A stretch of DNA of 60,892 bases, counting the filler, from Hausera hauseri (lineage: Eukaryota), in assembly GCA_046269625.1 (NCBI GenBank). It is 11 parts of 11 records of this genome, joined end to end, with 100 filler letters (N's around TTAATTAATTAA, not from the genome) between each part and the next. Parts side by side here need not be neighbours in the genome. Positions count along the whole stretch, not along the records: positions 15,320 to 21,304 come from JBJURY010158089.1; 10 more parts are not named here. One strand, 5' to 3'. Both the position numbers and the translations under genes were made by a program. Position 1 is the stretch's first letter. Each line of letters begins with the position of its first letter. The notes beneath the pieces were generated by a model, which was given only the letters and a program-made list of their open reading frames with translations, did no database searches and was not told where the DNA came from. Shown piece after piece: positions 10,627 through 46,717 of the stretch.

Positions 10627-12740
10627 CATAAATATCCTCTGTATGGATCTGATAGATGAAACTATCAGTATCCATATACATCAGCTGCATGGACTTGAAC
10701 TTGAGGACCATGATGTCATAATGGAATCTGTACATTAGGGTCTTTGACAGATTTAATGCTGCCATACCCCACATATATGGGCTTGTTGAATACTAATGCT
10801 GTTTTCAGCATATGGATGCCTTAACAGCCATAAAGAAATGAGCCGGATCCAAAGCATGGCTCTTCATTGTAACATCCCTGAAACTCTCAAAGACATCAGT
10901 CAGCAGCAGAACGTCCTTCTTGAGACATATGCGCTGTATTCCCCTAATGTTCGGTATTGAAATGCCTGCCAGACGTGCTGAGCATGCTGGTAGTCAGCAT
11001 TACTGATATCGCAATCAGAGAGGATATTGTAAAAGTCCTTCTTGGCCGGCAATGAGGTCTCATCCAGTGTTTCCCAGGAAGTTATATAGTCATAGGGAAA
11101 CACGCTTTTCCTTTTGACTAGATCAAATGCAGTGGGAAAGAACCGCTTTGTCTACATGAGTTCTTCGGAAGGGAGGTTCTTAACCAAACTGTCAAATGAA
11201 GACGGCATGAAACGGAATCTGTCTACGAAGCGAAGCCTGATTTTCCCAACATGCTTGGTAAATGTGATGTATTTTTCCTCGCTATTACGGATCACATCAA
11301 TGTTCCCATTAATGTTGCCCAGTTTCCGAACAATGAAGTGGGAATCACAGCCACTGACATTATGGAACACTACAGGCACATATGTGGATGCTTTGCAACG
11401 TAGATTGCAGTTGTTACATGCCGCGCTCCGATATTTGCCTATAAAATGGCAATGATCCGTGACTTTATAATTATCCATAGTGAATAATTTTGAGAACAAG
11501 TAATATGCTGTTGCCTTGCACCATTCTTCTTCTTGCTGCTTCAGAATGCTCATGGTATACCTATGCTGCTGCATATCTCCAATTCTACGAGCCATATCTT
11601 CAAGTCGTTTCATGAAATGAGCTTCTGCCCCTGGACCCCTGAATAGATGTGGTTCACTGTCCAGTCCTTTGGCATACACGCAATATAATGAAACCTCATT
11701 ATATTGGTATGCCGTTGTGCTGCTATATTGGGGATTAGGACTGCAACCCTGAACTGGGCGCAGAATAGCCTGAAAGTGACAATAGATAACTACTGGGACC
11801 TTGATCTTCTCCTCGAACTCCTTGAATTGAATGTAATCCTCCTTGGAAAAATCTGGCCTGATACAATAATTGCTGTTGCAGTACATTTTGTGCTCTTTCG
11901 GCTTCAATACAGCTACGTCGCCGCTGAAATGTGACAAGCATCGTTTGCATACTTCTATTTCTCCATGATGTTTCGTAATTTGTGATCTGACTATCCGCTC
12001 AGTCTTTGATCCAAACATAATGTTTCTTTTCTCCATCATCTAGTAGGAGCAGATCTCTATAATCTTTCAATTCAGCATAGCATATCTGCAGGGGATAGAA
12101 TTTATCACCCTCATCTAATCCCAAGATATTGATGGACATGTTATTGACTTATCCAAAATTTTTAACTTCATCTATGGATGGAGGGAACTTGATACATTGG
12201 AAGTCATAGTTGTGCTACGCATCCTTATATAGCCAAACTCGTGAAGCATGATTTTGATCCGTTACGAGTTTTGATAGAATGGCATACATGAAGCAAATGT
12301 TGTCGTTATTATAGACATTGACACATGCTTTTTTATTAGCTATCCAATCAAGGAACTGAATATATGAACTGCCCCGCATGGTAGAGTACTTGTGAAAATA
12401 CCCAATCAGTCTCCTGATGGTTGCCAGAGGCCATCCGCTATTCTTATCCTGGCTTTCCCCGGCTTCACGGATCAGCTTCTCGTTCGCCTCTTGCATCCAT
12501 TCTACTATATTGATGTTTTTCTATATGGGTCTATTTTTGGTCTTGAAGGCCATATTAGATTCTTCGCCATCAACATTGATGTATGTGGCCTCCAGTTTCA
12601 TATTGGCCTTAAGGACTTTGAGCTCAGCCATGTTGTCGTGACGAATCCCCTCTGTCTCTTCCTTTGTGTATAAAAGGAAGTCTTGGAGGGTTGTTTGACC
12701 AGTTGCATCAATTACATATCTGCGGTATTTTCTCTTAAAT
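10627..12740 (-). pseudogene. Polinton/Maverick protein-primed DNA polymerase B (EndoVII-containing type), fragmented
   Basis: SGW..GSSYI..KKACVNVYNND.ICFMYAIL; CKRCLSHF; DHCHFIGKYR.A.CNNCNL; VVFHN.SG.DSHFI; FVDRFRFMPSS; FPYDY; KPIY..LSKTLMYRFHY; YMDTDS. Many stops and frameshifts. Confidence 0.92.
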
Positions 12741-15319: not shown

Positions 15320-16083
15320 ATTCCGTGACATTGGGGATGGTAAGCTGTGGTAGTTAATGGTTCGATTTCAAAAATCTTGGTAATTTTGTCGAACAGTTCA
15401 CTCGTGAAGCTTCTTCCTCGATCTGTCAATATTTGTTCGGGTGGTCCGTATCTGCAAATGATTTTCCGGACTACCGCTTCTGCCAAGGTATCGGCCTATT
15501 GGTCTAATAGCGCTATAAGCTCGACGAAATGAGTCAATCGATCTGCACACGTCAGAATGTATTTGTTATTCTTGTGGGTCGTAGGCAACGGTCCTACAAT
15601 ATCCATAGACATTGCTTGCATTGGTCTATCGTGTACGTCGATAGGCTTAAGCTCGGCGACGTAATTTTTTACTTTACTTTGCTTGGTTGCACTCACTTCG
15701 CAAGCATTCACCCAATTTCTCACGTCGATGTAGATGCTTGGCCAATAGTACTTATTTAAAATCCTTTCTAATGTCTTTTTCCATGACATGTGTCCCGCTA
15801 AGTATAAATCGTGTTCGGCCATGATAACTTCCGTTCGTAATCCTTTCGGTATGACGACTAATTTCCGTCCTTTTCGTTCGTAATATAACACATTTTCGCG
15901 GTTCAAATCTCCAGCGACACAGTATTTGTGACCATATCGTCGTAAGTGTTTCCGTAACTGATGACCTTTGGGTGTTACGTTGGTCTCAACGAACTCGATA
16001 ACCTGTTGTATAACCTTGTCTTTCTTCTGTTCATCAGCAATCTTCAATGCCTTATTTAGTATGAGAGAGGCGTATTTGAGCAT
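15320..16083 (-). pseudogene. Gypsy-type DDE integrase (Zn finger and catalytic core), truncated by the contig end
   Basis: HDLYLAGH..YYWP..CEVS (HHCC-like); MDIVGPLP; ICRYGPPEQILTDRG; TTAYHPQCHG. One internal stop. Confidence 0.92.
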
Positions 16084-16199
16084 ATATTAGGATTTCTGTT
16101 CTAGGCGGTATGGTTTCATCCACTGGAATCCACATTTCACCAAATTTTGTGTCTTTCGTGGTTTTAACGCCTTTTATCGGGACAAGTTCTATTAACTTG

Positions 16200-16530
16200 C
16201 CTGCATTGAAATCGATTGCTATATTGGGTAATTGCCTCAATAGGTCACACCCTAACACTACATTATCCTTTAATTGCTCCATTACTGAAAATTCGTGATG
16301 AAAAATCTGTCCCATTATGTGAATTTCTGGTTTCCAACGAAATTTACTTTTCGACGATTGTGCGAAGACTCCAATGCTTCTTTGATCTGTCGTAGGAGGT
16401 GGACATAATTGTTTCCGTAAGAATTGTGGTATCGAATCATATTTTATCAGTGATATTTCAGATCCTGTATCTATTAGTGCATAAACCTCCTAATCTTCCA
16501 ATTGAATCTTTGCGAAGGGCCTGCCTTCGA
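16200..16530 (-). pseudogene. Retropepsin-type aspartic protease
   Basis: GRPFAKIQLED*EVYALIDTGSEISLIK (DTG at 16471-16463) and a downstream VVLGCDLL motif. Confidence 0.88.
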
Positions 16531-17199
16531 TTACTGTACCATAATAGCTTGGTGCTATCTTGGGTTGTCGTATGGTAAACACATTGTAACCATTGATGGT
16601 AACTTCAGTGGTTCCAACTGGCTGCTCGACTAACTGTCTTAACTCTCCAATTGGGTATAGTGCATTATTCGTTTCATTCGCGTTTTCTACTCTCTGGTTT
16701 CTAACTGGCGGCTGAACATCTGAGGTGCGGAGATTTCGTGCTTCATGGCTTCGAGTAAATATCGATTGCGTTTCGTTTGGTTTAGGTATTTTGGGCGAGT
16801 AAATTATACCGTGGTCGTCGACTGCTGATCTATGGTGTGGAGTCGAGGTTTTCTCTGTTTCGTGGATCTTACGCAATATCCCATAGCGTTTTGTTCCTTC
16901 GTAAGGATTTTGTAAACTAAACGGCTTCCGATAGATGTTTGTCTGGCATGAACTCATAGATTGTTTCTCGCAATCTTCATATATAGGCGCCGTTGGCGGC
17001 AATATTGGTAATGGTAGTTTCATAACGGAGTAATTTTTGTTCCTGTTTGGCCTAAAGAGGACGTCTCCTCCCTTAGGCTCCTCATCATCCGAATTATTTC
17101 TTCGTGTCTTAGCTTTTATAAATTTTTGCCTGTAGTCGAATATACCTCTGTTCTGTTTTCGATTATGGTAGTCAACATGTCGCTCTACATTTGTTTTCC

Positions 17200-19050
17200 A
17201 TTTACTCTCTTCATAAGCCTTTAACAATTTGCCGAAGGGAGTAATAATAGCCCTTAAAATTTTGCACGAAAATCCTGTTAAGGTAAATATCTCATATCCG
17301 TTTATGATTGCCTGAATTATAGCTTTTACCAGTTGAATTAAAAAATATATCGCTAGAAATTCTGACGCGGCTTGTCCGAATATTAGGAATCTTCCCAAAA
17401 TTTATGTATAATATTTCTGTAGTTATCTTCTTATAATAGCCAATACCAAGTAATGACTCCCATTTTGCTTGGTAACGCGAGTCCTCTAATATTGTGTGCA
17501 TTGCTCGATTCAGTTTCTGCGTACGCTGACAAGGAAAGGCGAGAAACTGTCGGAATGCCTCTACTTCTTTTTGTCGGTAAATGCCTTTCGCAGCTCTGTC
17601 CTGAAATTTACCATCAGCTATTCCCTTTATTACGTTCGTTCATGTCAACTTGGCAGGTGGCGCGATAATACCACAGTTCAGTAAACTTACCCAGTCGGGC
17701 TCGCTACGTCTGAACATCGGTTTTCCTAAGCTAGTTTTACAGTCTCTCAAGATTGTCGGTTGAGTGGCATTTGCCAACAACACTCTGGTAATTGGCGTTC
17801 CTAATCTCGGTACGTCCTGAAATATCACTGGGAGTTCTTGTATACATCTCTTTTCTTCCACATTAACCGGTATGTCCTTTTTCTTGCACTCATACGTCAA
17901 TAGGACTTCTCCGGTTACTCGTCCAAAAACACATTCTTTCATCGGAATTATTTGTGATGCCAACTTGGGATTTGCGTATATTAGAGGTAGTTTAGTTCTC
18001 ATGATTTCCAAGTCCAATTTACAGTCGTTCGTTATCATCCTGTGACATAACTCTGTTATTCCGGCTTGTCCTTTATAGTAGAAATAGTCGTCTCTCTTTT
18101 TTAGATAATCCTCAATTCGAATGTCTTGAGTCTCCAGTTTAAACGTTCTAGTGTTTATTTCGGTCTCAGCTACAAAGAATGCCTCATAATTTGTGGCATA
18201 CATTATGACATCTGATCTTGTGAGTACATCTTTCTTCACAAACTTTAGTCCATGAGTGTCAGAAATTAGTATAGTAAGTGTTGACTGTTCTGCTACCTCT
18301 TTTCATGTTTTAGAATTAGTTTCTGTACTACTTATGTATCGTTTCCCTGTCATTTCACTGAACTTAAGTTCTTTAATTTTGATAAAATTACAATCGGTCT
18401 TTATTGGAGGTTCCAAAATTACTACAGAACTTCGAAACGGACATGTGCCATCATGAATGTGGCACTTGTGGTTTTCTGTGTAAAGCTTTGTAACGCTATG
18501 GAATATCACCTTTTGTACGCGAATTTCGGTTTCATAAAAGTCTACTACTACGTCATTCGATTCTAGTCCTTTCCCGGTGTCGTATTCAGCACCTTGAAAA
18601 TGCCCGGTGTGCATGTCTAACCTTCCTGCCGCTACTTTATACACTCTGATTATTTTCCCTTGTTGCATTTCTAATTCCATGCCGTCCCATTTTGTTATTC
18701 CCGTTTCTCTAGCTTGCTTACAGTGTTGTCGTTCTAAATTCATCGGAATTGGTGGGGTTGTCGGCTTTATTACTGACTAGCGCCCATGTATTTGTCCACA
18801 ATGGAAAATGCTGCGAAATCGTTTCAACATACATTCTACTCCATCTAATGCAATTAGTTCACGTTGTTGGTATAACACGTAACTTTTTTCTTTTGTTTCT
18901 AATTTGTGTGGTCTCGCGTTTTTACACATTTCCAAGTCCATTAGTGAGTATTTTTGGCCAAGTCTAAATTTGTCACAATTATATACTGTGACTGCACCCA
19001 TTTGTTTTATCAACATCATCATGGTCAAAAAGTTTATTAGCCAATTCGAT
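17200..19050 (-). pseudogene. Chuvirus/Monjiviricetes-like class III fusion glycoprotein (env-like), fragmented
   Basis: Hydrophobic signal-like stretch then VTVYNC..YSLMD..C; C.LKR...FHCG; GEVLLTYEC..C.QELPV..PITRVL..C..PMF; C-terminal TM region FLIFGQAASEFLAIYFLIQLVKAII..ING..GFS. Confidence 0.8.
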
Positions 19051-21304
19051 TCGCTTCCTCTACGATTTCCAGTTACATTTTGTAGCAATTCTCCGAATCT
19101 ATTGCTATAGAAGGAGAATCCACTTTGATGTTCTTCCTCTTTTTCGAATAACTTAGACTAATTCTCTTCTCGGGGTAGCTTTTTGGCAGCCTTTCTTGCC
19201 AAACTAGTAGCCTTGATGAACTCATTTTCCCGATTCGGATTGGTTTTGATGGCCAGGTATAGCAACACTTTTCTCAGTTCCTCTATAGTATTCTCTACCA
19301 TAATTTTCTCGATTATCGTTTCATCACTTAAAGTGCTCTTAGTTGATTTACAGCGGAGGTTCTTCATGGCCTTTGCGGCGTTCGCTATGGCCTTCTCCTT
19401 CTCGTCTAATATATCACTGCTGAGGCTAGAGTAGTTTACTATTCTTATCAAATTTTTTATCAGTTCGTTCAATTCCTCATTATCTGCGCTAAAGGTCGGT
19501 ATGGACATCTGTCACAATTCTCTAATCAAGTCTCCATTATAATCGATTTCCTCTTGTATCTTCCGTGGCCTACCGACAGGACGCTTCTTTTTCGTTACAA
19601 CAGGTATGTTGCTATCAATCGGTACTAAGTTTTTATCATATTGCTCATTATCTTCATCCGTTTATAAATACTCAAAATACACTGCTGCATCTCGGACTCC
19701 TATTATTCGTCCTACCTGTTGTTCTGCTTTGGCCTTTCTTATAGCCTCTTCCTTTGTTTCGTCGATAGCGGTGGTTACCACCAACCGGTTCACTTCATCT
19801 GGGATAATTCCAACTTTTATTAATAGTTCCGTCTCGTCTAGTATTCCTCCTCGGAAATGAAGCCTGTAGTTTAACTCATTAGCGTATCCGTTGTGCTCTA
19901 TCCGCAGTAATACATCCCTTACAAGGGAGCGCGTAATGAACTCTTGTTCCTTCTCGTCCGTCCAATCTAATGCTATTTTTACTGGAATCGTCTCTTCTGC
20001 CTTTGCCTTTAGAATTTTGGCATATTCTTTGAGTAAAACCTTAGGTATTGTACTGAAGATCGTACCTTTACTAGCTAATTTAGTTAGAGTGGGGACTAAC
20101 TGTCTTAATTGAATTTCAGTGAGATTTATTTCAGTCAGCTGAGTTAAGTCCTTCTCGGTTTGTGCTCGGTCCAGAAGCATTTCTACGTTAAACCTTTGTT
20201 CAGGAGAATACATGTCCATTTTGCCTAAGTGTATTGGGGTTTTCGGATTTTTCGCAATCATTGCATATAAATAGGCTTCCCAATTTGGTTCATTTTCATT
20301 ATCTGGCAGTTGATAGTTCTTCAACGGGGTATCGGCTGGCCTGCCCACCACTGTGGGCCACGTAATTGCTCGGAGTTCTTGTAGTTTCTGCTGCATCTGG
20401 ACCATTTTTGTCGTTCGGAAATATCGCCCATTAGCGGACGTTTGGTGGAGCAGTGTTAACAACGAACATAATCCTTCGGGTGAAATTAGACTCTTTTCTT
20501 GGTATTTCGTTTGTTCGGACGTGACATCTCTTTGCCATCTTTGAATGAATTGTGACTTGTCAGCTTTTTCGGCTTCTGTAAGGACGTATTTGTTTTTATA
20601 GACTTCGAGTTCTCTAGTTAGTTCGTCCAACCTTATCGCTCTCTGTTTTATCTTAATGCAAGTTTCTTCGACTTGCTGTATCTGCTGCAACAATTTCCTT
20701 AGTTTCTCATCACTAATTTCTACCATTTCTTCCATCAATAGCGCTAATTCGTACATCTCTTTAATGCTCTTTGAATCCGGATCCATCGCATCTAATAATT
20801 TTTTTACGAACTTGATCTCTTCGAAGTTAAGGTGGCGGTCGTTCTTCATTTTAATTAGTTCGGTATGAAGTCTTTGATCCGTTCCATCTCTCCATTCTTG
20901 AGGACGATGTAAGAACTTAACTGCTTCTTTAACGACTCACCGGTATTCGGGACAAAAGTCCAAAGTTTTAAGATCTCGGATCGAGATTTCTTCGATAGGT
21001 TTGACTGTCAACCAGAGTATTCCATTCAGGCGGACATCTGTTAATCGTGGGTAGAAATCGCAAGTCGCATTTCGCTTTCGCGTGAAGTTTGTTTCCTCAA
21101 TCATTTTATATATATCATTTAGCACCATCATCTCTTCTTTCTTTCCCATAAAGTTTAATTGACGTAGTGCCTCGAATTGGGTTCGGATGTCAACCTCTGC
21201 TTTCATCGTATCTAGGTTTCGGGCGTCTTCTTCCAGCTGCTTCTTAACTGTAGGTTCACTTTCTGGGAATTCCTTTTTCCGGCTGGCCACTAATTCATTC
21301 AGCC
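19051..21304 (-). pseudogene. About 750-aa unknown helical region with an AT-hook, in frame with the glycoprotein
   Basis: ORFs 21290-20937, 20849-19662, 19508-19158 and 19088-18777 share one frame (gaps of 87, 153 and 69 nt) and are separated only by point stops. KRPVGRPRK lies at 19586-19560. Confidence 0.7.
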
Positions 21305-21404: not shown

Positions 21405-22116
21405 AGTGTTGTCAGAAAAAATTGGAAATCTTTGAAAAACTTGGTGATGCATTTCTGAAACACATAATCACAGAAGATGAGACACCTCTGAACCGTTATA
21501 TATCTGAAACTCAAAGTGAATATGTTGAATGGAAGATTCCAGGAGCCAAAATCACTGAAAATGAGAACTGGCACTCCCACAAGAAATGCCTGATGCTCAC
21601 AATCTTTCTTAACGTGGATTTCGCTGCAGCAGATGTCAAAATCAACTCTGATTATTATGTGCAACTTATAAAGGAAGCCAGAAGAAAGCGGCAAAAAAGA
21701 GGAAAGAATGAATTACGGCTACTGCATGACAATGCCCTTATTTTTACATCCACCTGACAACAGCAACAATTGATTACGTGGATTATCAGTGGTGACTCAC
21801 CCACCATACAGTCCTGACCTCACCCCTAGTGATTTTCACGTCTTCCGACAACTGAAGAAGGATTTACGAGGAAAATTCTTCGATTGTGCTAGTGACATGC
21901 ACCAGTATGTCACAGATTTGCTGATTTCATTCCCAAAAACCTTCTATGTAAAGGGCTTTTTGGACTTGATGTCACAATGGCGAAAATGCGTGGAAGTAGT
22001 TGGAACTTACATTGAGAAATAAACCTAGACAGGTTGCTTGTTTGTTGTTGAAAGTTTGAATAAAATTGGTTGTTAATTTCTTGTCGAGTCTAAATACTTA
22101 ATGGGCGCACCACGTA
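21405..22116 (+). mobile_element. Mariner (DD34D) transposon relic with 3' TIR and TA target site
   Basis: IITEDET, LLHDNA and HPPYSPDLTPSDFHVF motifs. TIR-like TAAATACTTAATGGGCGCACCACG ends at 22114 and is followed by TA. Confidence 0.9.
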
Positions 22117-24332: not shown

Positions 24333-27300
24333 ATAACCCCCGGTGGCAAAGCAACGACTAAAGAAGTAAGAAAAGGGAAGATGTGTAGAAACGGTGTATT
24401 TTGTCTAAGTGGGCTTTGTATGAATAAGACGTTGTACCTCTGCAGTGTTAATCTCCTTACTGTTGGTACTAAATGTTACTGATTTGAGAATTTTCAATGT
24501 CTTTGAGTCTAATTGCGGAGAAGACTGAGGTAAAATAATGTCGGATTTCGGCGTTGAAGGTGTTGTGTCGTTCAGTGACGAAAAAGAAACTGGAGGAGTA
24601 GATGTAGGAGAAAAGGAAAAAAAGGTTGGAAGGTTAGTAGAAGAGGAGTTTGGAGTAGGGTCAGATAAAGAAGTAGGTAAAGGGGTCGGAATGGAAAGGG
24701 ATGTATGGGTGTAGGAAGTGAAAAGGTACAAGGCGAAGGAGTCGAAAAAGGGGTCGGAGATTCAATTTTGGGGATGTCGTCTACAAAAAATGCAGGTTTG
24801 ACGTTGTTGATATGCACCGCTAGTTCCTTACCGTCTTTAGAAATAATGGTATTGTAAGAGTGCAATTGGACCAGATTGTAAGGCCCCAAATACCGTGGCT
24901 GAAAACCGCATGGTGTCTGGTTTCTCAGCCAGACAAATTTTGCAAAATATAAATCGTCGGGTAGGTACGTTTTATTGTTATGTATTATTCTGCAGAATGA
25001 ATCTTTACTGACTGAGACAAAATGATTCTGTGCAGTTAGGATAGCTTCGTCTGTAGGTGTATCTTCCAAGGCAGTTAACTCAAATAATGAACGTACAGGC
25101 GCTCCAAATAGGGCTTCCGTAGGTGAACGACCAGTAGAAGTAGAAGAGGTGTTACGCCAACCCAGAAGAACCAACGGAAGAAGAGTAGTCCAACTGCTAT
25201 TGGATTCTGCGAGGATTCTCAGTGACGTTTTTAGTGTTCTGTGGAATCTCTCTAAAAGGCCATTCGATTGGGGGTGATACGGTGATGTGTATATATGACT
25301 GATTCTTAATCGGTTAACGAGAGATTTAAACAAATTGGACTCAAATTGAGTACCTTGGTCCGTAATAATGAATCTAGGGGATCCAAATCTGCTGATCCAA
25401 GTGCGTATGAAAAAGTAGGTTATTGTGTCCGTGTTAGTGCTCCGTAGTGGGACAGTTTTTGGCCAACGTGAGGAACAATCCATCATGGTCAAAATGAACT
25501 GATGACCGCTGTCAGGAGAAAGAGGGCCAACGAGATCAACATAAACAGACTCGAAACGTGATGTGCACATGAAATGATATTGTGGTGGCTTCAATTTTTT
25601 GGTGATTTTAAATTTCTGGCAAGCCACACACTCCTTAACCCACTCTTGCACATCAGAACACATAGTCGGCCATAATACTTGCCAGTGGAGTAAGCGAAAA
25701 GTTGCCTTAGCATCAGGATGGTGCATTGAATGTACACTGTTAAACGCTTGCCGTTGTAAAGGTGGTGCGAGAATTATAGCGGAATGACCTGGTTTGGAAA
25801 TGTCTAAAGCCACGCCGTCAACAAATGTACAAGACTTAAAGGAATTAAGCATGTCCTGAGGTGACTGGTTCTATTGGAGTTGTAGTTGAGAGAATATTGG
25901 TGAAAAATTAAGCGAACCAATCGTCCTATATAGGAAATCGGCCATCAAATTATTAACCCCGTTAATATGTTTAATGTCAAAGTTAAATGTCGACAGATAT
26001 GATATCTGTCTTTCTTGGCGTAAGGAAGGATGTTTCATAGCCATGATGTTTAGCAAGAGCTTGTGATCGGTCTGTATAGTAAAACGGTGAGCTACAAGTA
26101 GGTGGGAGAAATGCTTTAAAGCGCGAACTATGGTCAATAATTCTCGATAGAACGTTGAATATAGAGTTTCAGGGGATGTTAGCTTACGAGAAAAAAATTC
26201 TAGTGGTTGATTTTCTCCTTTGTTTATTTGGTGAAGCACAGCACCTACCGCAGTGGTTGAAGCATCTGTAGTAAGGATGAGTTCCGCATCGGGCTTGGGG
26301 AAAGCGAGAATGTCGACGGTCTTAATTCCTTCGCGTAGCTTATCAAACTTATCAACCAGGTTAGGTTTCCACTGGATTGACTGATGTTTTTTGCCGCCGC
26401 TTAAGTAAGCAAATGGTGCAGTAAGTTCAGAGCAGTACGGCACATACTTGTGAACGAAGTGCAAAGTTCCCAAAAAACTCCTCATTTCTGTTGTTGTTCG
26501 AGGTAATTGTATACTTCTGAGAGCTTCAACACGTTTTATGGCTGAGAAGAATGTCCATTTGCTGAAATGATGTGTCCGAGAAAGTTAGTACGCTTTTGGA
26601 AAAAGCGACATTTCGTAAAATTAATTTGTAAATTGTGGTGGTTAAGTCGTTGAAAAATGGAACGAAAGTGTTCCTCATGCTGTTTGACTGAAGACGAAGC
26701 AATTAAGATATCGTCGATATATGGATGCGCGAAAGTTAAATCCGAGAAGATGGAGTCGATGTGACGCTGGAAAGTCTGCGCAGCGTTGCGTAAACCAAAA
26801 GGCATATAATGTATTCGTACAGGCCGAAAGGTATCGTAACGGCAGTTTTCTCGATGTCCTCGGGTGCGACAGGAATTTGATGATATGCCTTGGCTAAGTC
26901 TATGGTTCAATATACTATAGTGGAATTGAGCCGGTGCAGGATATCCTTAATTAATGGTAAAGGGTATGCATCCATAACAGTTAGAATGTTTAGCTGACGG
27001 TAATCACCGCATGGTCGGAAAGATCCACCTTTTTGGACAACGTGTAAAGGCGAAGACCACGGCGATTTAGAACTACATACAATGCCGGGACGTTCAAGAT
27101 ATAGAAATTCCGCTCCGACAGCTTGCCTACGACGAGGTGACAATGGACGTACCTTTTGACGAATAGGTTTTTGGTGTTGCGTTACGATGTGATGAAAAGT
27201 GCTGTTTGTAGGTGTGAAGGTTTGGTCCTTCTGGATTAAGGAGGGACATGAAGTGTGTATATATTGCCGTAGACTTGCAGGCAATTGCGAGAGATTGGGT

Positions 27301-28249
27301 GATTGTGATGGTGTTGAGTCAATATGTGTAGTGACGAGTGATGTTTGCGAGTTATTGTAATAAAGGGGAATTTGGTGTACGACAGTAGTATTAAAATGGT
27401 GTTTGAAGAGGTAAATTTGTCTAGTGAATGTATTGAACCAACACAATCGTAGTTGTCAAAATCAAAACTCAATTGAATATCGATATTATCGTTAAAAAAT
27501 TTACGAAATGAAAAATGCTTGTTGAAGAGGTTTGGATTGCTTAGAGGATTTTTCAGTATAGGCTTCCGCGGGAAGATCGTTTGCGCCTTAGCTGAGATAC
27601 TATTTATTAGTTCGGTAAGATATCCAGTAGTGTTACGTTTCAGAGATTGTTGTTTGCAATCAACTAAAAGATTATAGTGCGATAAGAAATCCGAACCTAG
27701 GATTGCTGTCCGGACATTAGCAATGGTAAACGTCCAATGAAACGTGGGCTGAAATTTGGTAAGGTGAATGACAATTTAGATGTACCCGAAATGTCTAGCG
27801 GTTCTCTTGAAGCCATAAATGACGATTTAGCTTTGAATGGTGAATTTTGTACAGGGAAAGTGAGTGATAACAAAGAAACCGCAGAGCCTGTGTCAATAAG
27901 GAAATCTATGGATTGAGTTGTTGGTGTGGTTATCGAAGCTTTTAGTGTAAAGACTGTAAAAAGAAGTGTATCGGAAGGTATTATTAGAGAAGTTGCCTTT
28001 GCCAGACTCTGCCGTGAGTACTGGTGGCGAAATTAGTTTTTTTGGATTGGTGAGATTGACCGACTATTACTAGGGGAAATAGAACGTCTGTCGGTAGCAT
28101 GATTAGCGTTGTTCTTATAGTTGTAGCCTGAAAGATATTTCTGAGAGTGGAATCCAAATTTCGCATTTAGACGCAAACGATCTTGTCTGAATGTAAATTT
28201 GGAGTGTAATATCTACACCCTAAACAGCATTTATTAGCTTTATTATGAA
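24333..28249 (-). mobile_element. Ty3/Gypsy LTR retrotransposon, decayed pol (PR-RT-RH-IN)
   Basis: FLIDTGSAVS (about 27900); SPWSSPLHVV..CGDYRQLN; [21 protein letters not shown]; TTDAS; DLVGPL..TDQGTQFES..YHPQSNG.LERFHRTLK. A G-run CCGGGGGTTA|TGT at about 24341-24333 is the likely PPT/LTR start. Confidence 0.95.
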
Positions 28250-30105: not shown

Positions 30106-33100
30106 TTAAATCTGCCCTTGGGTAATCAGTTGTTTGTGCAACTCTCTGCATTGAATTGCAGCTTTTCTTGTAGACTTTCCTCTTGGATTATCTTGACTGA
30201 CTGCAACCTCTTCATTCTTATTTTCTAATTGCAACCCTTTATGCAATAGTATAATATCAGATGGATGTCTGATTATGATCTCTCCATTTGCTTTCTTAAT
30301 GGTAACAGAAACCGCTTCCTGCAAATCATTTCTCATAACATCTGTCACGACACCCATATTATAGTTTAAGGGCTTACAAAACTTTTCTTTAATAGCAATT
30401 ATATCATTCACATCTAAATCTACATATGGTTTTGTTTTATACCTATCTTTTCTATTTACTGACATATATTGCAAATTCTCCACAAATTCATGGCGATAGA
30501 GTTCATTTAAATTATTTTTTACATTTCTATAATTTTTAAACAAGTTATATAGCTTTTCCTGATCTTTTTCTAAAGTCCAATCAGGGTCATTCAAATGATC
30601 TCTATCCTCATGCATGTGTGGTGATATATCTAGACTATTAACCTCATACCCTTTTAATAATACCTCTGGTGTTATAGCAAAGGGAACACTTGGATCTACC
30701 TCTGGGTCTCTTAATAAAGCTCTAAAGGCTAAAGGTCTTTTGTTTACTAAGGAAGAAGCTTCCTTAACAAGTAATAAGAATTCATCATATTCTAAAACAT
30801 TACTTCCCAGAGAGACATTTATAATATTTTTAACCTGCTTAACTAATGATTCAACAATACCACCTAGAAAGCTTGCTCTTCCAGGGTAAGGGTGAAATTT
30901 CAAAGATTCAATATTTTTTAATTTAAACCAATTTTTTACTTCTATTTCATTCATGAAGTTTTGAACAATGTTCATAGAACTAACTATAGAACTTCCCATA
31001 TCACTTAAAACACGTGATGGAATTCCAAACTCAAAAACATGCATTTGAAATGCCATGAGAAAGGATTTGTTATTTAAACTCTTACACAAAACAAGATTTA
31101 CTGCTCTTGTAAACATACATGTTAATATTAATAAATAAACTTTCTCATTTTCATTATTAATTTTAATATTAAAAGGCCCTACATGATCAATAAAAATTTC
31201 TTGAAAGGGTTTCATTTTAGGATTTACTCTGTATTCCTTATAGCTATTCTGATTTGTTTTTATGGCCCTACTATACATTAATTTACACTTCATGCAATGT
31301 TGTATATTCTTTTTTATGACTGAATATAAATTAGGAATATAAAATTCTCTTCTTACACTTGCAAGCATCTTATATATACCTGCATGTTTTAATTTCATAT
31401 GGTGCTCTTTCACTATGATCTGAGTTAAGCAATGGTTTTTTCCTAATAGAATTGGATTTCTTTGATTGAAATCAGCATTTAGTTTGGCCATTTTACTCTT
31501 TACTCTAATAATCCCATCCCCATCTAAAATTAAATTTAGTTGTGTTATTAAATGTGTTTCTTTATTTTTTCTTGGGTTTACTAGATAATTATAAGTATCA
31601 GGGAAATCTTCTATTTGGGCTTGCCTAATAATAGTATTACAACTCTCTCTATATGAACATTCAGAATTTACATCAAAATTTTCAAACAAACTTACATTTT
31701 TACTTTTAATTTTGATTTTTAAATTATGAATAAACTTTCTTACAAAGTGTGAAGTTTTACATATTTTTTCTAATGTTGAAAACCTATCCAATTTGAATAG
31801 TGCAACATTTGGGGAAATTGTTTGTATATTTAGGGTATAAATATTATAATTATGACCATTTTCTGAATGTAATGGATTGGGAATTTTAACTTGAATAATA
31901 TCACTTAAATTTTTTAGATCTGGACCCTCTAAATAATTACTTTTTTTCAAAACATTATAAGAAACACATCTAGTAACACAATCACTTGGATTTACTAATC
32001 CATTTATATGATGAAAAGTTACTTCATGCTTCTCACACATGCTAACTATAGAATTTAAATTATTATTTATAAGGGATCCTTTCCTTTCAATTTTATCAAA
32101 CCTTTCACATTTGTTTATTATCCAATTTAAACTGATAGTGGAATCAGTGTATAAATGCAGACTTTCTATTTTCACAGGGCAGAATGCCTTAGTTAAAACT
32201 TCATACATTTCCAGCATGCATTCCACTCCATATCTCACCCCTGTTAATTCTAAAATTGGAATTGTTCTACCGCTATATTTATCTGAGACAACTCTATTTT
32301 TAGCACATAAAAAATGTAATTTATCTGTCTGAGTATCTAATAGATATAATACATTACCATAAAATGATTTACTGGCATCAGTAAAGCATAGTATCTTATA
32401 AATACTTCCATAATGTCCTATATATCTTCTAATTTTTGGAAAAGTGCTTTTATTATATTGCTTACAAATCTTAGAGTATTCTCTTAATATTTTTGGACTT
32501 AATTTACTGTCCCATGTTATTTTTTTATCCTTCTGCAAGCTGTGTAAGAACAGTTTAGCTCTGTTTCTACCAGGCAGGCCTATATTCAAAGGATCAAAGA
32601 TAGAGTTGACTTCTGATAAAATTTTACGGAGAGTATTTGCTTCTGGATTTAATTTATTAATTTTATTATATAACATATCATTTCTATAATCCCATACCAT
32701 TCCTAAAAGTTTGGTTTCCCCAGTTAGGTCATTATTAGTCCCATTAGGGTATACCTCACTATTCATGAATTGTTGGAATTGGGGGGAGTTACTATAAAAC
32801 TGTTGAAGGTTAAATCTATATGAACTAAATATTGCAGTAGCTTTATGAAAGGCTAAAAGAATGTCACTCTCAAACCCTGACGAATAACCTATATTATCCA
32901 TGTATGACAGGTTATACATACACTTTCGGAGATGATTCTCAAAGTCATCACAAATATCAACATGCAACATTAAAATTATATAGATAGACATCATGAGAAT
33001 AAATGGACTACATCGTAATCCAAATGGCAGGCGCATTAATTTATACGCTACAACATCAAAATTATTTTCTTCTATATTTTTATACCATAAAAAATACAGT

Positions 33101-33768
33101 TTTTCAGAGTCTTCCTCCGGTATTCTTATTTGATGGTAAGCTTTCTCTATATCATAGACCAACAGAAATTTATTTAATCTTAATAGAGTCAATGCTATAT
33201 CTAATTTTTGATTTAGATTGGGTCCTGGGATACTAATATTATTGTGGCTTAAGTATTTTTTCTCAGATTTGTCACACAAATTTGACAAATAAACTATTCT
33301 GCATTTAGTCGTCTCGACATTATCTCTAAATACTGCATTATGTGCTATAAATGATACATTTTTATTATACTTTAAGGTATTTATATTTTCTACGGGTTGA
33401 ATAATACCACTTCTAATTTGTTCCCTCAACACTTGGTCGTATAACTCCAGTTTGTCCCTTTCTTTGCTAAATTTTCTTTTTATAGATTTTAGTACATTAT
33501 AAGCTAAATAATAATTATTTGGCAATAAATGTATTAATTTTGGGTTGAAGAGACATGGCATTATTAACCTACCATTTTCTCCTACTTGAGTATTCTGCAG
33601 TATATGTACAATAAGCTCTTTGTCTATCTCAGAAAAGGGGTCTGGAGTCCTAAACTCATCTATGTTTAAAACCTCATGCATTATTTTCTTTAGTTTATAG
33701 TTAGGATCATTTAATTCATCTAAATTTGGATGTAATTCACTGGGGTCAACAATATTTGAGGAAAACAA
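30106..33768 (-). CDS. pol: BEL/Pao Pol (RT-RNase H-integrase), open for 1220 aa
   Basis: GPNL..DIEKAYHQI; RLPFGLRCSPF; YMDN; FDPL; FTDASK..LCAKNR..TIPILEL; HAG..CMKC; DHVGP; SDMG; GGIVESLVKQVK..NKRPL. Confidence 0.95.
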   Translation of the reverse strand: MFSSNIVDPSELHPNLDELNDPNYKLKKIMHEVLNIDEFRTPDPFSEIDKELIVHILQNTQVGENGRLIMPCLFNPKLIHLLPNNYYLAYNVLKSIKRKFSKERDKLELYDQVLREQIRSGIIQPVENINTLKYNKNVSFIAHNAVFRDNVETTKCRIVYLSNLCDKSEKKYLSHNNISIPGPNLNQKLDIALTLLRLNKFLLVYDIEKAYHQIRIPEEDSEKLYFLWYKNIEENNFDVVAYKLMRLPFGLRCSPFILMMSIYIILMLHVDICDDFENHLRKCMYNLSYMDNIGYSSGFESDILLAFHKATAIFSSYRFNLQQFYSNSPQFQQFMNSEVYPNGTNNDLTGETKLLGMVWDYRNDMLYNKINKLNPEANTLRKILSEVNSIFDPLNIGLPGRNRAKLFLHSLQKDKKITWDSKLSPKILREYSKICKQYNKSTFPKIRRYIGHYGSIYKILCFTDASKSFYGNVLYLLDTQTDKLHFLCAKNRVVSDKYSGRTIPILELTGVRYGVECMLEMYEVLTKAFCPVKIESLHLYTDSTISLNWIINKCERFDKIERKGSLINNNLNSIVSMCEKHEVTFHHINGLVNPSDCVTRCVSYNVLKKSNYLEGPDLKNLSDIIQVKIPNPLHSENGHNYNIYTLNIQTISPNVALFKLDRFSTLEKICKTSHFVRKFIHNLKIKIKSKNVSLFENFDVNSECSYRESCNTIIRQAQIEDFPDTYNYLVNPRKNKETHLITQLNLILDGDGIIRVKSKMAKLNADFNQRNPILLGKNHCLTQIIVKEHHMKLKHAGIYKMLASVRREFYIPNLYSVIKKNIQHCMKCKLMYSRAIKTNQNSYKEYRVNPKMKPFQEIFIDHVGPFNIKINNENEKVYLLILTCMFTRAVNLVLCKSLNNKSFLMAFQMHVFEFGIPSRVLSDMGSSIVSSMNIVQNFMNEIEVKNWFKLKNIESLKFHPYPGRASFLGGIVESLVKQVKNIINVSLGSNVLEYDEFLLLVKEASSLVNKRPLAFRALLRDPEVDPSVPFAITPEVLLKGYEVNSLDISPHMHEDRDHLNDPDWTLEKDQEKLYNLFKNYRNVKNNLNELYRHEFVENLQYMSVNRKDRYKTKPYVDLDVNDIIAIKEKFCKPLNYNMGVVTDVMRNDLQEAVSVTIKKANGEIIIRHPSDIILLHKGLQLENKNEEVAVSQDNPRGKSTRKAAIQCRELHKQLITQGQI

Positions 33769-33789
33769 ACTATGGTGGTGAAGTAGTTG

Positions 33790-35904
33790 TCAGTCTTTCT
33801 TTTGTCTTTCGCTAATGTCTCTTTTAATGGCTTTTAGTTGATCTACAAACATGTTTAATCCATTTATATGGGGAATATTTTTTTCTAAATCTCCTATTTT
33901 ACCTAATAGCATTATTCCTACATATGAAGAGAAAATAAGAGATCTTTTACTGCTTCCACCAAATGTGCAACCTTGAAATGGTATAATATCTGCACTTCTT
34001 GCTCCTAAAATTATATCAACCTCCCTATTCATTTGGTTTAGCAGATGTTTATCTGCCAACTCTATTCCACATTTCTCAAATTCATTGACTATTTCTGGGG
34101 AAGGGGTATTGATTTTGGTATTTATTTTGGGAACCACTGCAGCTAGGATTTGTACATTCTTATTTTTTAATTTTATGTGAATTTCTATGATGTTTGTTTT
34201 ATAATATGCAGTTTCATTAAATCCTTGTACCTTTAGCTTTATGTTATCATGCACAATCTTGTATTTTAATTTATTGGCTACCGCTAGACTTATAAAACTA
34301 ACCTCTGCACCTGTGTCAAGTAATACTCTTAAATCCTGTGTATGGTTTTTTATATTCTCCCCCACCGCGGTAAAGGTTGGGAGCATGATATCACTGGTGT
34401 TAGCAGTACACATAGTATGTAATTGAATATAGTTGGAAAACTGTTGCTCAGCTGGCTCTGTTATCGGAACAACACTAAGTCCAACTGTTTGTGCTGACAC
34501 CTGTGCCTGCTCTTGCGGGACATTTTCTGCATTTTCTTGCATTCTATGTTGCCCATATGGTTTTGTACATAGTAAATAAGAATGATTTTCTCCACATTTT
34601 CGGCAGTCTTCCTTAAATTTATATCTACAGTCATCAATCTTATGAGATAGTAGCCCACATTTTAAACACCCTTTTAATTCTTTAATTTTCTTTATTTTAG
34701 CTTCCGGGGTATTAAATTTTGTACATTTTGCCAAACTGTGTGTCATGCTATCTGAACTATCTATAGCTTTACACAAAATACACCCTTTACCTTTATACTC
34801 ACCCTTATTGATAGACCTATTTTGATTATTCCTATTTTTCTTATTATTATCATTATTATTGTTATTTTTATCATTCCTAGATTTATTTTTATTCTTAACA
34901 CTAATATTGGTGGCTAAAGCTACTGTATTTGCTCTTTTCTTGCCTATGGATATAGTGTCTAACCTATCATGCACCTTAAAACTGTGGTTTAAGATTTCCT
35001 CGCAGGTTGGGTATGTTTCATTTGTCATTTGACAGTACATCCCTTTATATTCATCGGGAAGGCTTGACCACATGAAATATTGTAAAAAAGTAGCACTATC
35101 AATTTTATTTATATCTAGTTGGTCCTGAAGAGTTCTAACTTCACTGACCCAGGTATAGAATTCTTTAAAAGTTAAGTTTTTTATTTTTTCTATGATAGAA
35201 AATTTCTGTCGGGTAGGAGAGGAAAAGGCATCAACAAGAATTTTTTTTGCAGAATCATAATTCATGTTTGCTGTGGCAGTTGATTCAATTAGCATTTTTG
35301 CTTTCCCATTTACATGTTTTTGCAGCAAAATGAATTTTGTAATTGATGGAAGCCTTTTTGGTTCTATTATTGATTCAAAACTCGCCATAAATAAATCAAA
35401 GTCCTCAGCTCTACCGCTGAAGGTGGGCAATTGTATTTCTGGCAAACTTAAATTTGCCTGCTCGCCCATACCATTTCTTTGCAAATTATTACCTAGAGCA
35501 GGAGTGCATTCTATATTAGACTGATAAGTTTCCTCAATTTTACATATTAAATTTGCTATATAGCGAGAAACTTGGAAATTTTTATCACTTAACATGCTTG
35601 CACCCTCAGGGGTGTATTCTTTACAATTTGAGTATACATCCTCAATTTCCTGATCTAAATCCTGTAATTCCCTCCGTTTTATTTTTAAATCTTCAATAAG
35701 GCTATTTCGCTCCCTATCCGATATAGACTCTATGTCCTGATATACACTCCTAACTATTTTCATTGCCTCTATTCTTTTTCCACTCCTTTTCCTAACAAGT
35801 AACACAACTTTATTGAACTGTTTTGATCCCTCTGTATCAGTCTCAATAAGAGCCTTAACTAGCTCAATTTCAACCGCAGGATCAAACTCCATATTTTGAT
35901 TCAT
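33790..35904 (-). CDS. gag: BEL/Pao Gag-protease
   Basis: LPEIQLPTFSG..F..FESII (DUF1759-like); three Cys/His knuckles (CILC..H..C, CLKC..H..C, CRKC..H..C); LLDTGAEVSFI; DIILG. Confidence 0.93.
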   Translation of the reverse strand: MNQNMEFDPAVEIELVKALIETDTEGSKQFNKVVLLVRKRSGKRIEAMKIVRSVYQDIESISDRERNSLIEDLKIKRRELQDLDQEIEDVYSNCKEYTPEGASMLSDKNFQVSRYIANLICKIEETYQSNIECTPALGNNLQRNGMGEQANLSLPEIQLPTFSGRAEDFDLFMASFESIIEPKRLPSITKFILLQKHVNGKAKMLIESTATANMNYDSAKKILVDAFSSPTRQKFSIIEKIKNLTFKEFYTWVSEVRTLQDQLDINKIDSATFLQYFMWSSLPDEYKGMYCQMTNETYPTCEEILNHSFKVHDRLDTISIGKKRANTVALATNISVKNKNKSRNDKNNNNNDNNKKNRNNQNRSINKGEYKGKGCILCKAIDSSDSMTHSLAKCTKFNTPEAKIKKIKELKGCLKCGLLSHKIDDCRYKFKEDCRKCGENHSYLLCTKPYGQHRMQENAENVPQEQAQVSAQTVGLSVVPITEPAEQQFSNYIQLHTMCTANTSDIMLPTFTAVGENIKNHTQDLRVLLDTGAEVSFISLAVANKLKYKIVHDNIKLKVQGFNETAYYKTNIIEIHIKLKNKNVQILAAVVPKINTKINTPSPEIVNEFEKCGIELADKHLLNQMNREVDIILGARSADIIPFQGCTFGGSSKRSLIFSSYVGIMLLGKIGDLEKNIPHINGLNMFVDQLKAIKRDISERQKKD

Positions 35905-36155
35905 TACTCGAGTGTATGAAAGAAAACTTTATACATATATCTATATACCTTGCTATCTATCTAACTTTTATTATATTTGAATATAACATATACCTAGATA
36001 AGTTATTATTTCAAAAAAAAAAAAATTTTTCACCAAAAAAAAAAAAATTTTCACATAGAAAAAATTTCTTTAAAACAGGATATGTGTATTTCATATATAT
36101 ATTTTTATATTGGAAGATTCAGAACATCAATAGAAAAGACTTAATAGGGGCAGAT

Positions 36156-36174: not shown

Positions 36175-36354
36175 TACACAAAAACCCGAAAATTTCTATA
36201 TAAAAACCCGAAATATTATANNNNNNNNNNNNNNNNNNNNNNNNNNNNNNNNNNNNNNNNNNNNTTAATTAATTAANNNNNNNNNNNNNNNNNNNNNNNN
36301 NNNNNNNNNNNNNNNNNNNNGATTAAAAATTATGATGAATATAATAAGCAGGCA

Positions 36355-37092
36355 ATGCAAGTTAAAAATCAAAACATTTTAACAGACGAAGAGATACAGC
36401 ATTTTCAGAAACCTGTAACAAATGAATTAGACTTAATTAAGAAATCGATGGAATCAAAGATTCCTGTGCAAAGCACAATTGATAGACAAACTGAGATAAT
36501 AGATCAACCAAATGATGGAACTGAAGATAAATATCCACCAGCAATTGAATTTCCAGCAAATTATGAACCGTATTTTTTACCAGATGAAAGAATATCTGTA
36601 AACGTTTCTAGAACCAATAAATTAAAACCATATTTTTCAAAACAAAAGTATCAAAGAATTAGAATAAATAATAAAGATTTTGCGTTGGGAAAAGATTTGA
36701 CAGACAATTTAGTATATATGTGCAATGAAAATTTTGATAGAATGCTTTTTACTGATGATTTTGATAAATTGGTAAGAGGATATAGTTCAGATAATAAAGA
36801 TGAAATTGAAAGATATATTAATTTTATTAAAACTATAAGCGGTGATAATATTAACAATCTTAGTTATATTAAAAATTTAAATCAAATAATTAAACAAGGA
36901 TATCATGTTAAAGAAGGTAAGTCTATTAGTGGACCCATACAAAATTTTATTAATTTGTATAAATTTATTGCTGCAAAAAAGGCTGGACATAATAATGTTG
37001 ATAAAGATATTAAGAAAATTATAAACAAATTAAAAAGTTTGAAGGTTATTAGTAATGAAAAATATAATAAAATAATTAAGAAATATCTGTAA
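36355..37092 (+). CDS. Polinton/adintovirus-associated hypothetical protein (probably 5'-truncated)
   Basis: The C-terminal AAKKAGHNNV..IKKIINKL..LKVI resembles the AG[NH]..I..L tail common in Polinton accessory proteins. It lies next to the penton. Confidence 0.6.
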   Translation: MQVKNQNILTDEEIQHFQKPVTNELDLIKKSMESKIPVQSTIDRQTEIIDQPNDGTEDKYPPAIEFPANYEPYFLPDERISVNVSRTNKLKPYFSKQKYQRIRINNKDFALGKDLTDNLVYMCNENFDRMLFTDDFDKLVRGYSSDNKDEIERYINFIKTISGDNINNLSYIKNLNQIIKQGYHVKEGKSISGPIQNFINLYKFIAAKKAGHNNVDKDIKKIINKLKSLKVISNEKYNKIIKKYL

Positions 37093-37097
37093 CAAAA

Positions 37098-37823
37098 ATG
37101 GAGGAGGAATTGAAAAAATTAGTTAATATTTCATCAACCAAATATTCAACAATGCTTTATTGTGAATCTAATAAATCTGATTTTTACACTGATTTTACTA
37201 TACCTATTGAACTTGATAATAATTTAAATTATGAACTAGGTCTTCTATGGTTTTCAACATATAATACGATTTTTAATATAACCAATGAAAATAATAAATT
37301 TGAATTGTTTCGGGAGGGAACAAAGTTAGAAATCTCAACAGTAAGTCCTGGTGCATATGATATTACCCCTCTAAGTGAAAAATTAAAAGATTTTATGGAA
37401 ATAACAGATGATAAACCAACTTCAAAATGTTCAATGAATATTAAAAAAGGATATTCTTTAAAATTTGATGATAAATCATTTTTTCATACAATGTTGGGAT
37501 ATTCGATACGAGAATACAAAGAAGGAAAACATTTATCTGACTCAATCATTCAAATTACAAGTATAAACAGTATTAATATTTCTGTTGATTGTATTAATGG
37601 AGCATATAAAAATGGAAAATCTTCAAATATTGTTTATTCATTTCCATCCTTCACTGTTCCTTCTGGTTTTAAAATGTTTGAAAGACAAGTATTTCCAATT
37701 TATTACCCAGTAAACAGAAAACATATAAGTAGATTGAATATAAAGATTTTAGATGATCAAGAAAAGATTGTAGATTTCAATGGTGAAAAAATTATTGTGT
37801 GTTTGCATTTGAAGCAGGTCTAA
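37098..37823 (+). CDS. Polinton minor capsid protein (penton, single jelly-roll)
   Basis: SDF...PIELD..YELGL..FSTYNTIFNI..NNKF..PGAY; IYYPV....I..LNIKILD....VDFNGE.I...LHLK. Confidence 0.88.
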   Translation: MEEELKKLVNISSTKYSTMLYCESNKSDFYTDFTIPIELDNNLNYELGLLWFSTYNTIFNITNENNKFELFREGTKLEISTVSPGAYDITPLSEKLKDFMEITDDKPTSKCSMNIKKGYSLKFDDKSFFHTMLGYSIREYKEGKHLSDSIIQITSINSINISVDCINGAYKNGKSSNIVYSFPSFTVPSGFKMFERQVFPIYYPVNRKHISRLNIKILDDQEKIVDFNGEKIIVCLHLKQV

Positions 37824-37848
37824 CCTACAGAATTTATTAAATATAAAA

Positions 37849-38283
37849 ATGGATGATGATTTTTCAATCCTAGATTTTCTAAAAACATTTGGAATAGGTA
37901 AAACAACAAATTTTGATTTGTATGAAATTGCTGAAAAACTTAATTTACCTATAAAAATTTTAATGAATGATGAATTGTTTAAAATCACAAACACTAAAAA
38001 ACACAATATTATTATTAATTATGAAAATTCGAATGAAAATGGAAATCATTGGTGTTGTTTTAGAAATAGAAATTTTTATTTTGATTCGTATGGTATTAAA
38101 CCGATGAAGGAAGTAGAACAGTTCCTAGTTGATAATTATGTGTATAATGATAGGCAAGTTCAACCATTTGGAACTAAAATTTGTGGTGTTTTATGTGTAT
38201 TTGTTTTGTATAGAATGGAAAATGGATGTCGTTTTCAAGACATAATTGAAGAGTTGGGTGATTCTCTTGAACCATTATTATGA
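37849..38283 (+). CDS. Adenain-like virion maturation cysteine protease
   Basis: Catalytic H-D-Q-C pattern: GNHW, YFDSYG, QVQ....ICGVLC. Confidence 0.92.
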   Translation: MDDDFSILDFLKTFGIGKTTNFDLYEIAEKLNLPIKILMNDELFKITNTKKHNIIINYENSNENGNHWCCFRNRNFYFDSYGIKPMKEVEQFLVDNYVYNDRQVQPFGTKICGVLCVFVLYRMENGCRFQDIIEELGDSLEPLL

Positions 38284-38329
38284 ATTGTTTCATCTAGAGC
38301 AAAGCTCGGACAATTTATTGTCATAAAAA

Positions 38330-46624: not shown

Positions 46625-46717
46625 CTAAATAATACTAATACAACCTTTTCTCACATGATTTGTTTATAATTATGTTACACACATATAAATAGCTATAGTA
46701 TAAATGCTGTTGCCATA

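Follow-up and report, generated by a model that had tools for sequence, protein, structure and literature searches.

A dead, internally deleted copy of an envelope-bearing Ty3/gypsy-type element in Hausera hauseri, likely of the Burro/gag-env-pol kind

The closest described counterparts of the element reported here are Burro and GYPSM1 of planarians, giant Gypsy-like long terminal repeat (LTR) elements; the in-frame order of Burro is Gag-...-Ubi2/SUMO-BCL2-envelope glycoprotein (Env)-protease (PR)-dUTPase-like-reverse transcriptase (RT), and the published Burro/GYPSM1 layout runs from Gag to integrase (IN) in one open reading frame (ORF) (Arkhipova and Yushenova 2019; PMC6431247). More recently, GAG-ENV-POL Ty3/gypsy "ancient errantiviruses" with an ENV of the herpes simplex virus (HSV)/glycoprotein B (gB) type were described in Nematoda, Bryozoa, and Platyhelminthes, together with 114 arthropod elements that carry a chuvirus-like Env beside a Gypsy Pol (Chary and Hayashi, eLife 2026; PMC13524379). 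Here, we analyzed the contig at 15320-21304 of a joined stretch of 60,892 nucleotides (the window) from Hausera hauseri (assembly GCA_046269625.1); the stretch consists of 11 unrelated contigs separated by N44-12 nt-N44 linkers, and no feature crosses a linker. Very probably, this contig derives from a family of envelope-bearing Ty3/gypsy-type retroelements that is present in many copies and likely belongs to the Burro/GAG-ENV-POL kind; the copy is dead and internally deleted, and intact members of the family would make one polyprotein.

The initial annotation of this contig had reported a viral fusogen in frame with a protease, followed by an integrase, and had proposed a new system. Altogether, the observation was partly confirmed and its interpretation partly supported. 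The finding is real, neither chance nor chimera. The claim of novelty fell, as an in-frame gag-env-pol layout that includes ubiquitin-like (Ubl) and BCL2-like domains has been in print for Burro/GYPSM1 since 2019 (PMC6431247), and GAG-ENV-POL Ty3/gypsy elements with a gB-type Env were reported from three phyla in 2026 (PMC13524379). The contig is likely a new distant member of a known layout rather than a new system, being likened to Burro by domain order and published description. Because that layout is known, little is gained from a broken copy beyond a wider sampling of gag-env-pol diversity, the nearest Env among the matches listed being 30% identical.

Domains encoded by the contig

Positions 15320-21304 form a single whole contig with N-linkers at each side, without LTR or Gag and with an incomplete integrase. 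The minus-strand frame at 21302-17403 contains 7 stops in 1300 codons, compared to 41-133 in the other five frames, and is followed by minus-strand frames at 17401-16070 (1 stop in 444 codons versus 22-34 in other frames) and 16068-15320 (1 stop in 249 codons versus 10-20), in agreement with the annotated placement of all domains on one strand. In total, 9 in-frame stops interrupt this copy, which is broken further by a frameshift close to 17404 and by a junction close to 16070. When the translations, read with X at stops, were compared with Pfam, the domains detected on the contig were Monjiviricetes_fusion, RVP, Integrase_H2C2, and rve; no Pfam match to RT, RNase H (RH), or Gag was obtained. 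The features, with the evidence for each in parentheses, are listed below (aa, amino acids; E, expectation value; KD, Kyte-Doolittle hydropathy).

15320-21304, minus strand: decayed Burro-like Ty3/gypsy element, an internal fragment cut at both ends (N-linkers; contig coverage)
20177-21302, minus strand: helical region with a coiled-coil stretch at ~20765-20570 (heptad pattern; homologue P0030)
19991-20174, minus strand: small helical domain, conserved before the ubiquitin-like domain in the clade (relatives' profile)
19764-19988, minus strand: ubiquitin/SUMO-like (beta-grasp) domain (relatives' profiles; structure model)
19560-19586, minus strand: AT-hook-like basic motif, GRPRK (seen in the sequence)
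19137-19514, minus strand: helical zone at the position of the relatives' Bcl-2-like domain (colinear in alignment A8)
18993-19046, minus strand: internal signal-peptide-like segment (hydropathy peak of the frame, KD 2.25 over 11 aa)
17403-18992, minus strand: Monjiviricetes/chuvirus-like (gB-type) glycoprotein ectodomain (PF24664, E 3.4e-27)
17400-17408, minus strand: frameshift between ectodomain and anchor in this copy (frame analysis; depth of other copies)
17303-17359, minus strand: glycoprotein membrane anchor (KD 2.18 over 19 aa; PF24664 positions 542-611)
16526-17302, minus strand: cytosolic tail/linker of ~260 aa, in frame with the protease (frame analysis)
16229-16525, minus strand: retropepsin with DTG at 16474 and one stop at 16492 (PF00077, E 4.6e-6)
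16071-16228, minus strand: beginning of the spacer behind the protease (the place of the dUTPase-like part of Burro), truncated by a deletion (aligns to L001, L002, and P0007 up to 16061-16067)
16054-16081, no strand: deletion junction, with the spacer remainder, RT, and RNase H gone, ~1.6 kb (depth minimum; relatives' PR-IN distance)
15320-16066, minus strand: N-terminal half of a Gypsy-type integrase, cut by the contig end (PF17921, E 3e-17; PF00665, E 1.5e-14)

The ectodomain, with 16 Cys and 3 in-frame stops, is covered by PF24664 over profile positions 6-506 (E 3.4e-27), and a second part of the match (profile 542-611, E 2.6e-10), corresponding to the anchor, lies in the next frame; by sequence, this is a mononegavirus/chuvirus-like, gB-type Env. 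A class III fold is suggested by this family match and by what PMC13524379 states for this type of glycoprotein. Searches with the glycoprotein gave no real match among PDB sequences and none in a word-index protein search. The signal-like segment at 19046-18993 aligns with hydrophobic segments of relatives; the annotated internal signal and the chuvirus-like glycoprotein with its membrane anchor were both recovered. One frame holds anchor, tail, and protease, interrupted by the stop at 16492; the tail thus runs in frame into the protease as annotated, at ~260 rather than ~230 aa. The retropepsin was matched by a clade protease profile (independent E value [iE] 1.8e-14), and no second or degenerate protease was detected in the tail.

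The integrase was correctly annotated as Gypsy-type. It comprises an H2C2 zinc domain (15852-15694) and a core (15630-15334) with one stop at 15498, the H2C2-plus-rve combination of Ty3/gypsy elements, and it is read in a frame different from that of the protease. It is 36-43% identical to the integrases of Env-Pol relatives, compared to 22% or less for the BEL integrase of the window.

The region of ~750 aa upstream of Env was present at the annotated length; its description as unknown did not stand, since it holds an identifiable helical and ubiquitin-like (helical+Ubl) module, followed by a helical zone before Env. A profile of this module from four relatives, with boundaries cut by eye and the window excluded, matched 20171-19770 (iE 9.6e-9), better than all 280 scored of 300 shuffles; it also matched three loci outside its building set, and an eight-segment profile reached iE 9.2e-13. 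Alignment A6 of the Ubl domain matched ISG15 and ubiquilins in PDB. An AlphaFold model from a 9-row alignment gave a beta-grasp fold with a predicted local distance difference test score (pLDDT) of ~70-79, which had a template modeling (TM) score of 0.77 to ISG15/SUMO in Foldseek and, against ubiquitin-like folds (VIA), a Z of 12.2 with a root-mean-square deviation of 1.1 Å over 71 residues; these fold-search lists were filled by Ubl matches and barely sampled the small helical domain and the Bcl-2 zone. As in Burro, a ubiquitin/SUMO-like domain is therefore found upstream of Env on the contig itself.

For the small helical domain, a profile from 4 relatives matched 20168-19998 (iE 0.002), and the model showed three helices (pLDDT 51-75); a TFIIS-N-like reading, prompted by a sequence motif, was set aside for want of Pfam support. 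Among the matches listed, P0030 was the single homologue of 20177-21302 (33% over 20738-20274). A word-index protein search with the upstream region returned no match, and a single-sequence fold of its 752 aa reached pLDDT 36. The GRPRK motif at 19560-19586 is presumably an AT hook, and similar motifs occur in P0007, P0010, P0011, P0020, and L003. The zone at 19137-19514 was modeled at pLDDT 33-56. In 7 relatives, a conserved domain with weak Bcl-2 matches lies directly before the signal; the Pfam matches in three of them (E 1e-3 to 0.2) are all below the cut-off, and the match to Bcl-xL has E 0.01. A profile search for the relatives' Bcl-2-like domain was not significant, and a search of ESM Atlas with this part of P0020 produced no usable match. 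MATH, BIR, and ankyrin domains were not seen on the contig.

As judged by profile comparison, the upstream region is not Gag, because a Gag capsid profile built from 6 relatives found nothing on the contig (best iE 2.6) and because the relatives' capsid and CCHC knuckles lie upstream of the equivalent region. The annotated lack of a Gag was not upheld for the layout: in relatives, the accessory region is preceded by a Ty3-type capsid with CCHC knuckles, and the contig ends before that point.

Sister copies and the protease-integrase deletion

Contigs from two public runs, X1 (13,594 contigs) and X2 (1,257), aligned to 15320-21304 and covered 30 of 30 bins in both. The two runs differ in organism label and study, X1 may include this very copy, and the likeness of the aligned contigs to this copy was mostly below 95%. 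Because so many sister copies are found in both runs, the element family is a many-copy one. The 40 differences listed include at least 4 of the 9 stop codons, and each of these 4 codons differs in more than 95% of contig depth. In X1, 1284.6 of the 1383 depth lacks the break at 17404; in X2, 49.8 of 49.8 does. The annotated frame continuity between fusogen and protease thus holds for anchor, tail, and protease and fails for the ectodomain, which is set off in this copy by a frameshift that most other copies lack. The copy is dead and internally deleted, and it is unable to move by itself.

The border between tail and protease was spanned by contigs of both runs (X2 record 7, X1 record 2), and the same junction recurs in relatives. 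A junction unique to this copy, which the initial annotation had named as grounds for rejection, is therefore not what was found.

A different picture was obtained at the border of protease and integrase. Depth in X1 was 244 at 16054-16081, compared to 1488 and 4228 on the flanks, and among the contigs listed, four that enter this junction from the integrase and one that enters it from the protease continue into unlike sequence. None of the 16 pieces listed bridges it (there are 720 more pieces). PR and IN lie 658 nt apart here, whereas the interval spans 2205-2394 nt in every one of the 7 relatives measured, and homology to the relatives ends at the junction, ~16067-16071. On account of the depth dip, the departing contigs, the short distance, and the end of homology, the contact between PR and IN reflects the loss of about 1.6 kb and not a gene order. 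An integrase directly behind the protease, as annotated, is therefore not the layout of the element; the integrase stands beyond the junction, in a third frame.

Relatives, proposed mechanism, and rival explanations

A HMMER search with a 1199-aa query, consisting of the upstream region and the ectodomain, gave 219 matches at E<=0.001, 150 of them listed; among the matches listed, drawn from 1.8 billion representatives, the closest Env identity was 30%. Of 20 long or top matches scanned, 11 place Env ahead of a protease within a single protein, with 5 extending to RT-RNase H and 4 to integrase; P0115 was the only one of the 20 with integrase before Env. An alignment of six close Envs retrieved 5 metagenome loci, 3 of which encode Env-PR-RT-RH-IN in one ORF. 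The frame of L002, 3703 aa long, reads Gag(CCHC x2)-[helical+Ubl]x2-Bcl-2-like-Env-PRx2-RT-RH-IN and continues past the integrase. The same single-ORF arrangement from Env to IN is found in P0159, which has 4844 aa and ankyrin repeats, and in P0162. Overall, this arrangement was found in 9 relatives, several with Gag upstream, and PR-RT-RH-IN is the order in all 9, RT-RH being deleted in the Hausera copy. Because these 9 relatives share it, the Env-protease order is no accident. An Env upstream of PR in one polyprotein of a Gypsy-type element, as the initial annotation had it, is borne out by these single-ORF relatives and, on the contig, by the anchor-tail-PR frame.

All RT-bearing relatives scored as Gypsy-type, and the BEL/Pao domains Peptidase_A17 and DUF5641 were found neither on the contig nor in the relatives. 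In a FastTree phylogeny of ectodomains (113 rows including the window; 43 of 156 matched sequences excluded for length), the window Env falls, on a long branch of 1.5, in a clade with support of 99 that takes up 22 of the 113 rows and contains all 16 Env-PR polyproteins included. The helical+Ubl module, present as a tandem duplicate in L002 and P0162, is an old, conserved part of this clade. Single-protein locus scans gave no match in metagenome, genome, and viral collections, nor did alignment A3 against viral contigs, and no named Burro sequence was among the relatives listed.

Like Burro/GYPSM1, this family has Env in frame between Gag (seen in relatives) and protease, an Env resembling mononegavirus-type glycoproteins, a Ubi/SUMO-like and then (in relatives) a putative BCL2-like domain before Env, a coiled coil (Smc-like) upstream, a spacer after PR, and many copies, decayed fragments being known there as well. 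Unlike Burro/GYPSM1, the contig shows no MATH, BIR, or ankyrin domain, its Bcl-2-like match is not significant, and RT-RH is deleted in the copy. The elements of PMC13524379 are similar in that a Gypsy-type Pol is preceded by a gB-type, chuvirus-like Env, and differ in that a word search of the main text found no "Bcl", "ubiquitin", or "in-frame"; because it is not intact, the Hausera copy would fall outside the set defined there. Anakin (Dezordi et al. 2020) shares the Pfam glycoprotein family and has a BEL/Pao Pol with Env downstream, unlike the Gypsy-type integrase and the Env upstream of PR found here. A Maverick/Polinton fusogen-integrase reading was rejected, being excluded by the retropepsin-type protease and by RT in relatives. 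Nematode endogenous retroviruses (NERV) reportedly have a "continuous gag-env-pro-pol ORF", and they are not known to carry an accessory cassette. NERV (Sacco et al. 2022, as cited in PMC13524379) are likened by description only, with Env before protease/Pol. Troyka, a group without Env (PMC12440569), was set aside.

We propose that the intact polyprotein would begin with Gag and an accessory region (helical+Ubl and AT-hook, frequently also Bcl-2-like), followed by the internal signal, a gB-type Env with its anchor, one or more proteases, RT, RNase H, and integrase. Following standard membrane topology, Gag and the accessory domains would be produced in the cytosol, the internal signal would feed Env into the endoplasmic reticulum, and signal peptidase would free it; because the anchor is proposed to halt transfer, protease, RT, and IN would remain cytosolic, with Pol attached to the tail of Env until released by the protease. 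Capsids may then bud through membranes bearing Env, so that particles could be enveloped, and the RNA would be reverse-transcribed and integrated as in Ty3/gypsy. Ubiquitin and apoptosis pathways of the host are likely targets of the Ubl and Bcl-2-like domains, as was proposed for Burro (PMC6431247).

Several points weigh against assigning the contig to such a family. Gag, RT, and LTR are absent from it, and none of the sister copies obtained is long enough to show them; their presence in the family is predicted from relatives that are ~30% identical in Env and ~40% identical in IN, and no LTR pair was found in the L001, L002, and L005 loci. The integrase phylogeny that the initial annotation had asked for, an 11-row tree, left the window sequence without a supported position, no supported set containing it. 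Against the Bcl-2-like profile, 4 of 997 shuffles scored as high as the zone at 19137-19514 without composition correction and 78 of 997 with it, and in another shuffle test 53 or 378 of 995 were as high. No CCHC knuckle occurs over a stretch of at least 380 aa ahead of the Ubl module, and this stretch is longer than in most relatives. Finally, because GAG-ENV-POL elements are not monophyletic (PMC13524379), membership in a "Burro clade" is not shown.

Elements with a Gmr1-like order have PR-IN-RT-RH. If the contig came from one, RT would lie beyond its end, as would fit an integrase that follows PR and is cut by the contig end. PR and IN are out of frame, though, the contigs of other copies depart on both sides of 16067-16071, and all 7 relatives measured have RT-RH in a PR-IN interval of 2.2-2.4 kb, with homology stopping at the junction; this order is very improbable and already largely refuted. 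The same junction could instead mark a non-autonomous subfamily that retains Env and is spread by full-length partners, the deletion then being no one-off lesion. Depth there is low yet non-zero (244 in X1), and the 16 listed pieces are accompanied by 720 more; however, none of the 16 bridges the junction, the X1 depth may include this very copy, and, with 9 stops and two breaks of the frame in the copy, nothing is kept functional. We regard such a subfamily as distinctly unlikely.

Chance nesting of a chuvirus-derived glycoprotein within a Gypsy element, or an assembly chimera, would suit a broken copy, and glycoprotein endogenous viral elements of Jingchuvirales often adjoin fragmentary Gypsy and BEL copies (PMC10084718). 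Against this, other contigs of X1 and of X2 span the border between tail and protease, the nearest Env relatives (among the matches listed) are all Env-PR polyproteins, and the upstream Ubl module is common to the same relatives; the conserved single-ORF relatives refute nesting and chimerism, which we consider hardly credible. More room is left, albeit not much, for an independent origin of the Gag-Env-Pol order with likeness to Burro by convergence only, in view of the non-monophyly of GAG-ENV-POL elements by POL (PMC13524379) and the long branch (1.5) of the window Env; the relatives' order of Ubl, then Bcl-2-like, then Env equals that of Burro, which makes convergence unlikely.

Beyond membership in a many-copy family of the Burro/GAG-ENV-POL kind, a bolder and rather doubtful extension is that the contig belongs to a deep, unsampled Burro-like branch, possibly in a new host group, in which the clade's one polyprotein builds a two-glycoprotein particle and tandem proteases (2-7 DTG) solve dimerisation on a membrane-tethered Pol. 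If true, the two glycoproteins would be the class III fusogen before the protease and a membrane protein behind the integrase, possibly its receptor-binding partner.

Additional features of the relatives and the window

Between 2 and 7 protease domains with a DTG-type motif occur in 10 of 16 Env-PR polyproteins (P0159, P0010, P0007, P0006, L001, and others), compared to one in the window, and some of the extra retropepsins sit behind the integrase (two in P0159, one in P0007). In 8 of 9 integrase-bearing relatives, the integrase is followed in frame by a signal-like segment, an ectodomain of 250-400 aa, and an anchor, the ninth relative being cut short; the carriers are L001 (9044-10279), L002 (10000-11205), L005, P0007, P0008, P0015, P0159, and P0162. 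This membrane protein belongs to no Pfam family and is homologous among L001, L002, and P0162. Neither it nor the protease arrays turned up in literature searches, a thin test; published supplements and Repbase entries may already contain them or the family itself. A separate downstream ORF with an RNase_T (DEDDh) exonuclease domain is present in L001 (10617-12104) and L002 (12085-13470). P0008 (HBK71150.1), a 2627-aa Gag-Env-Pol polyprotein, was deposited as a hypothetical protein of a Flavobacteriaceae metagenome-assembled genome and is likely a mis-binned animal contig.

Elsewhere in the window, a nearly intact BEL/Pao gag-pol lies at 30106-35928 (minus strand), its ORF in two frames' worth split by one stop, and a second, decayed Gypsy RT-RH-IN at 24572-28032 (minus strand) is ~27% identical to the integrase of contig 15320-21304. 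A mariner-like transposase remnant was recognised by eye at 21405-22022 (plus strand). Weak, Polinton-like matches to DNA_pol_B_2 and Endonuclease_7 were obtained at 11152-12039 (minus strand) and 57739-58338 (plus strand), and a TBP-family match at 46670-47500 (E 2.6e-11). The mariner, BEL/Pao, Gypsy, and Polinton-like content of these adjoining contigs would fit an invertebrate animal as host. Four tandem AT-rich ORFs (23-25% GC) at 36277-39241 (plus strand), without Pfam match, are possibly Polinton/virophage-like structural genes. An ORF at 44636-45259 (minus strand) resembles by eye a DEDDh exonuclease remnant; it had no Pfam match and no tblastn match to the L001 and L002 exonucleases. 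Lastly, 49536-50461 and 59275-60531 show inverted homology of ~80-88%, the two contigs being copies of one repeat family.

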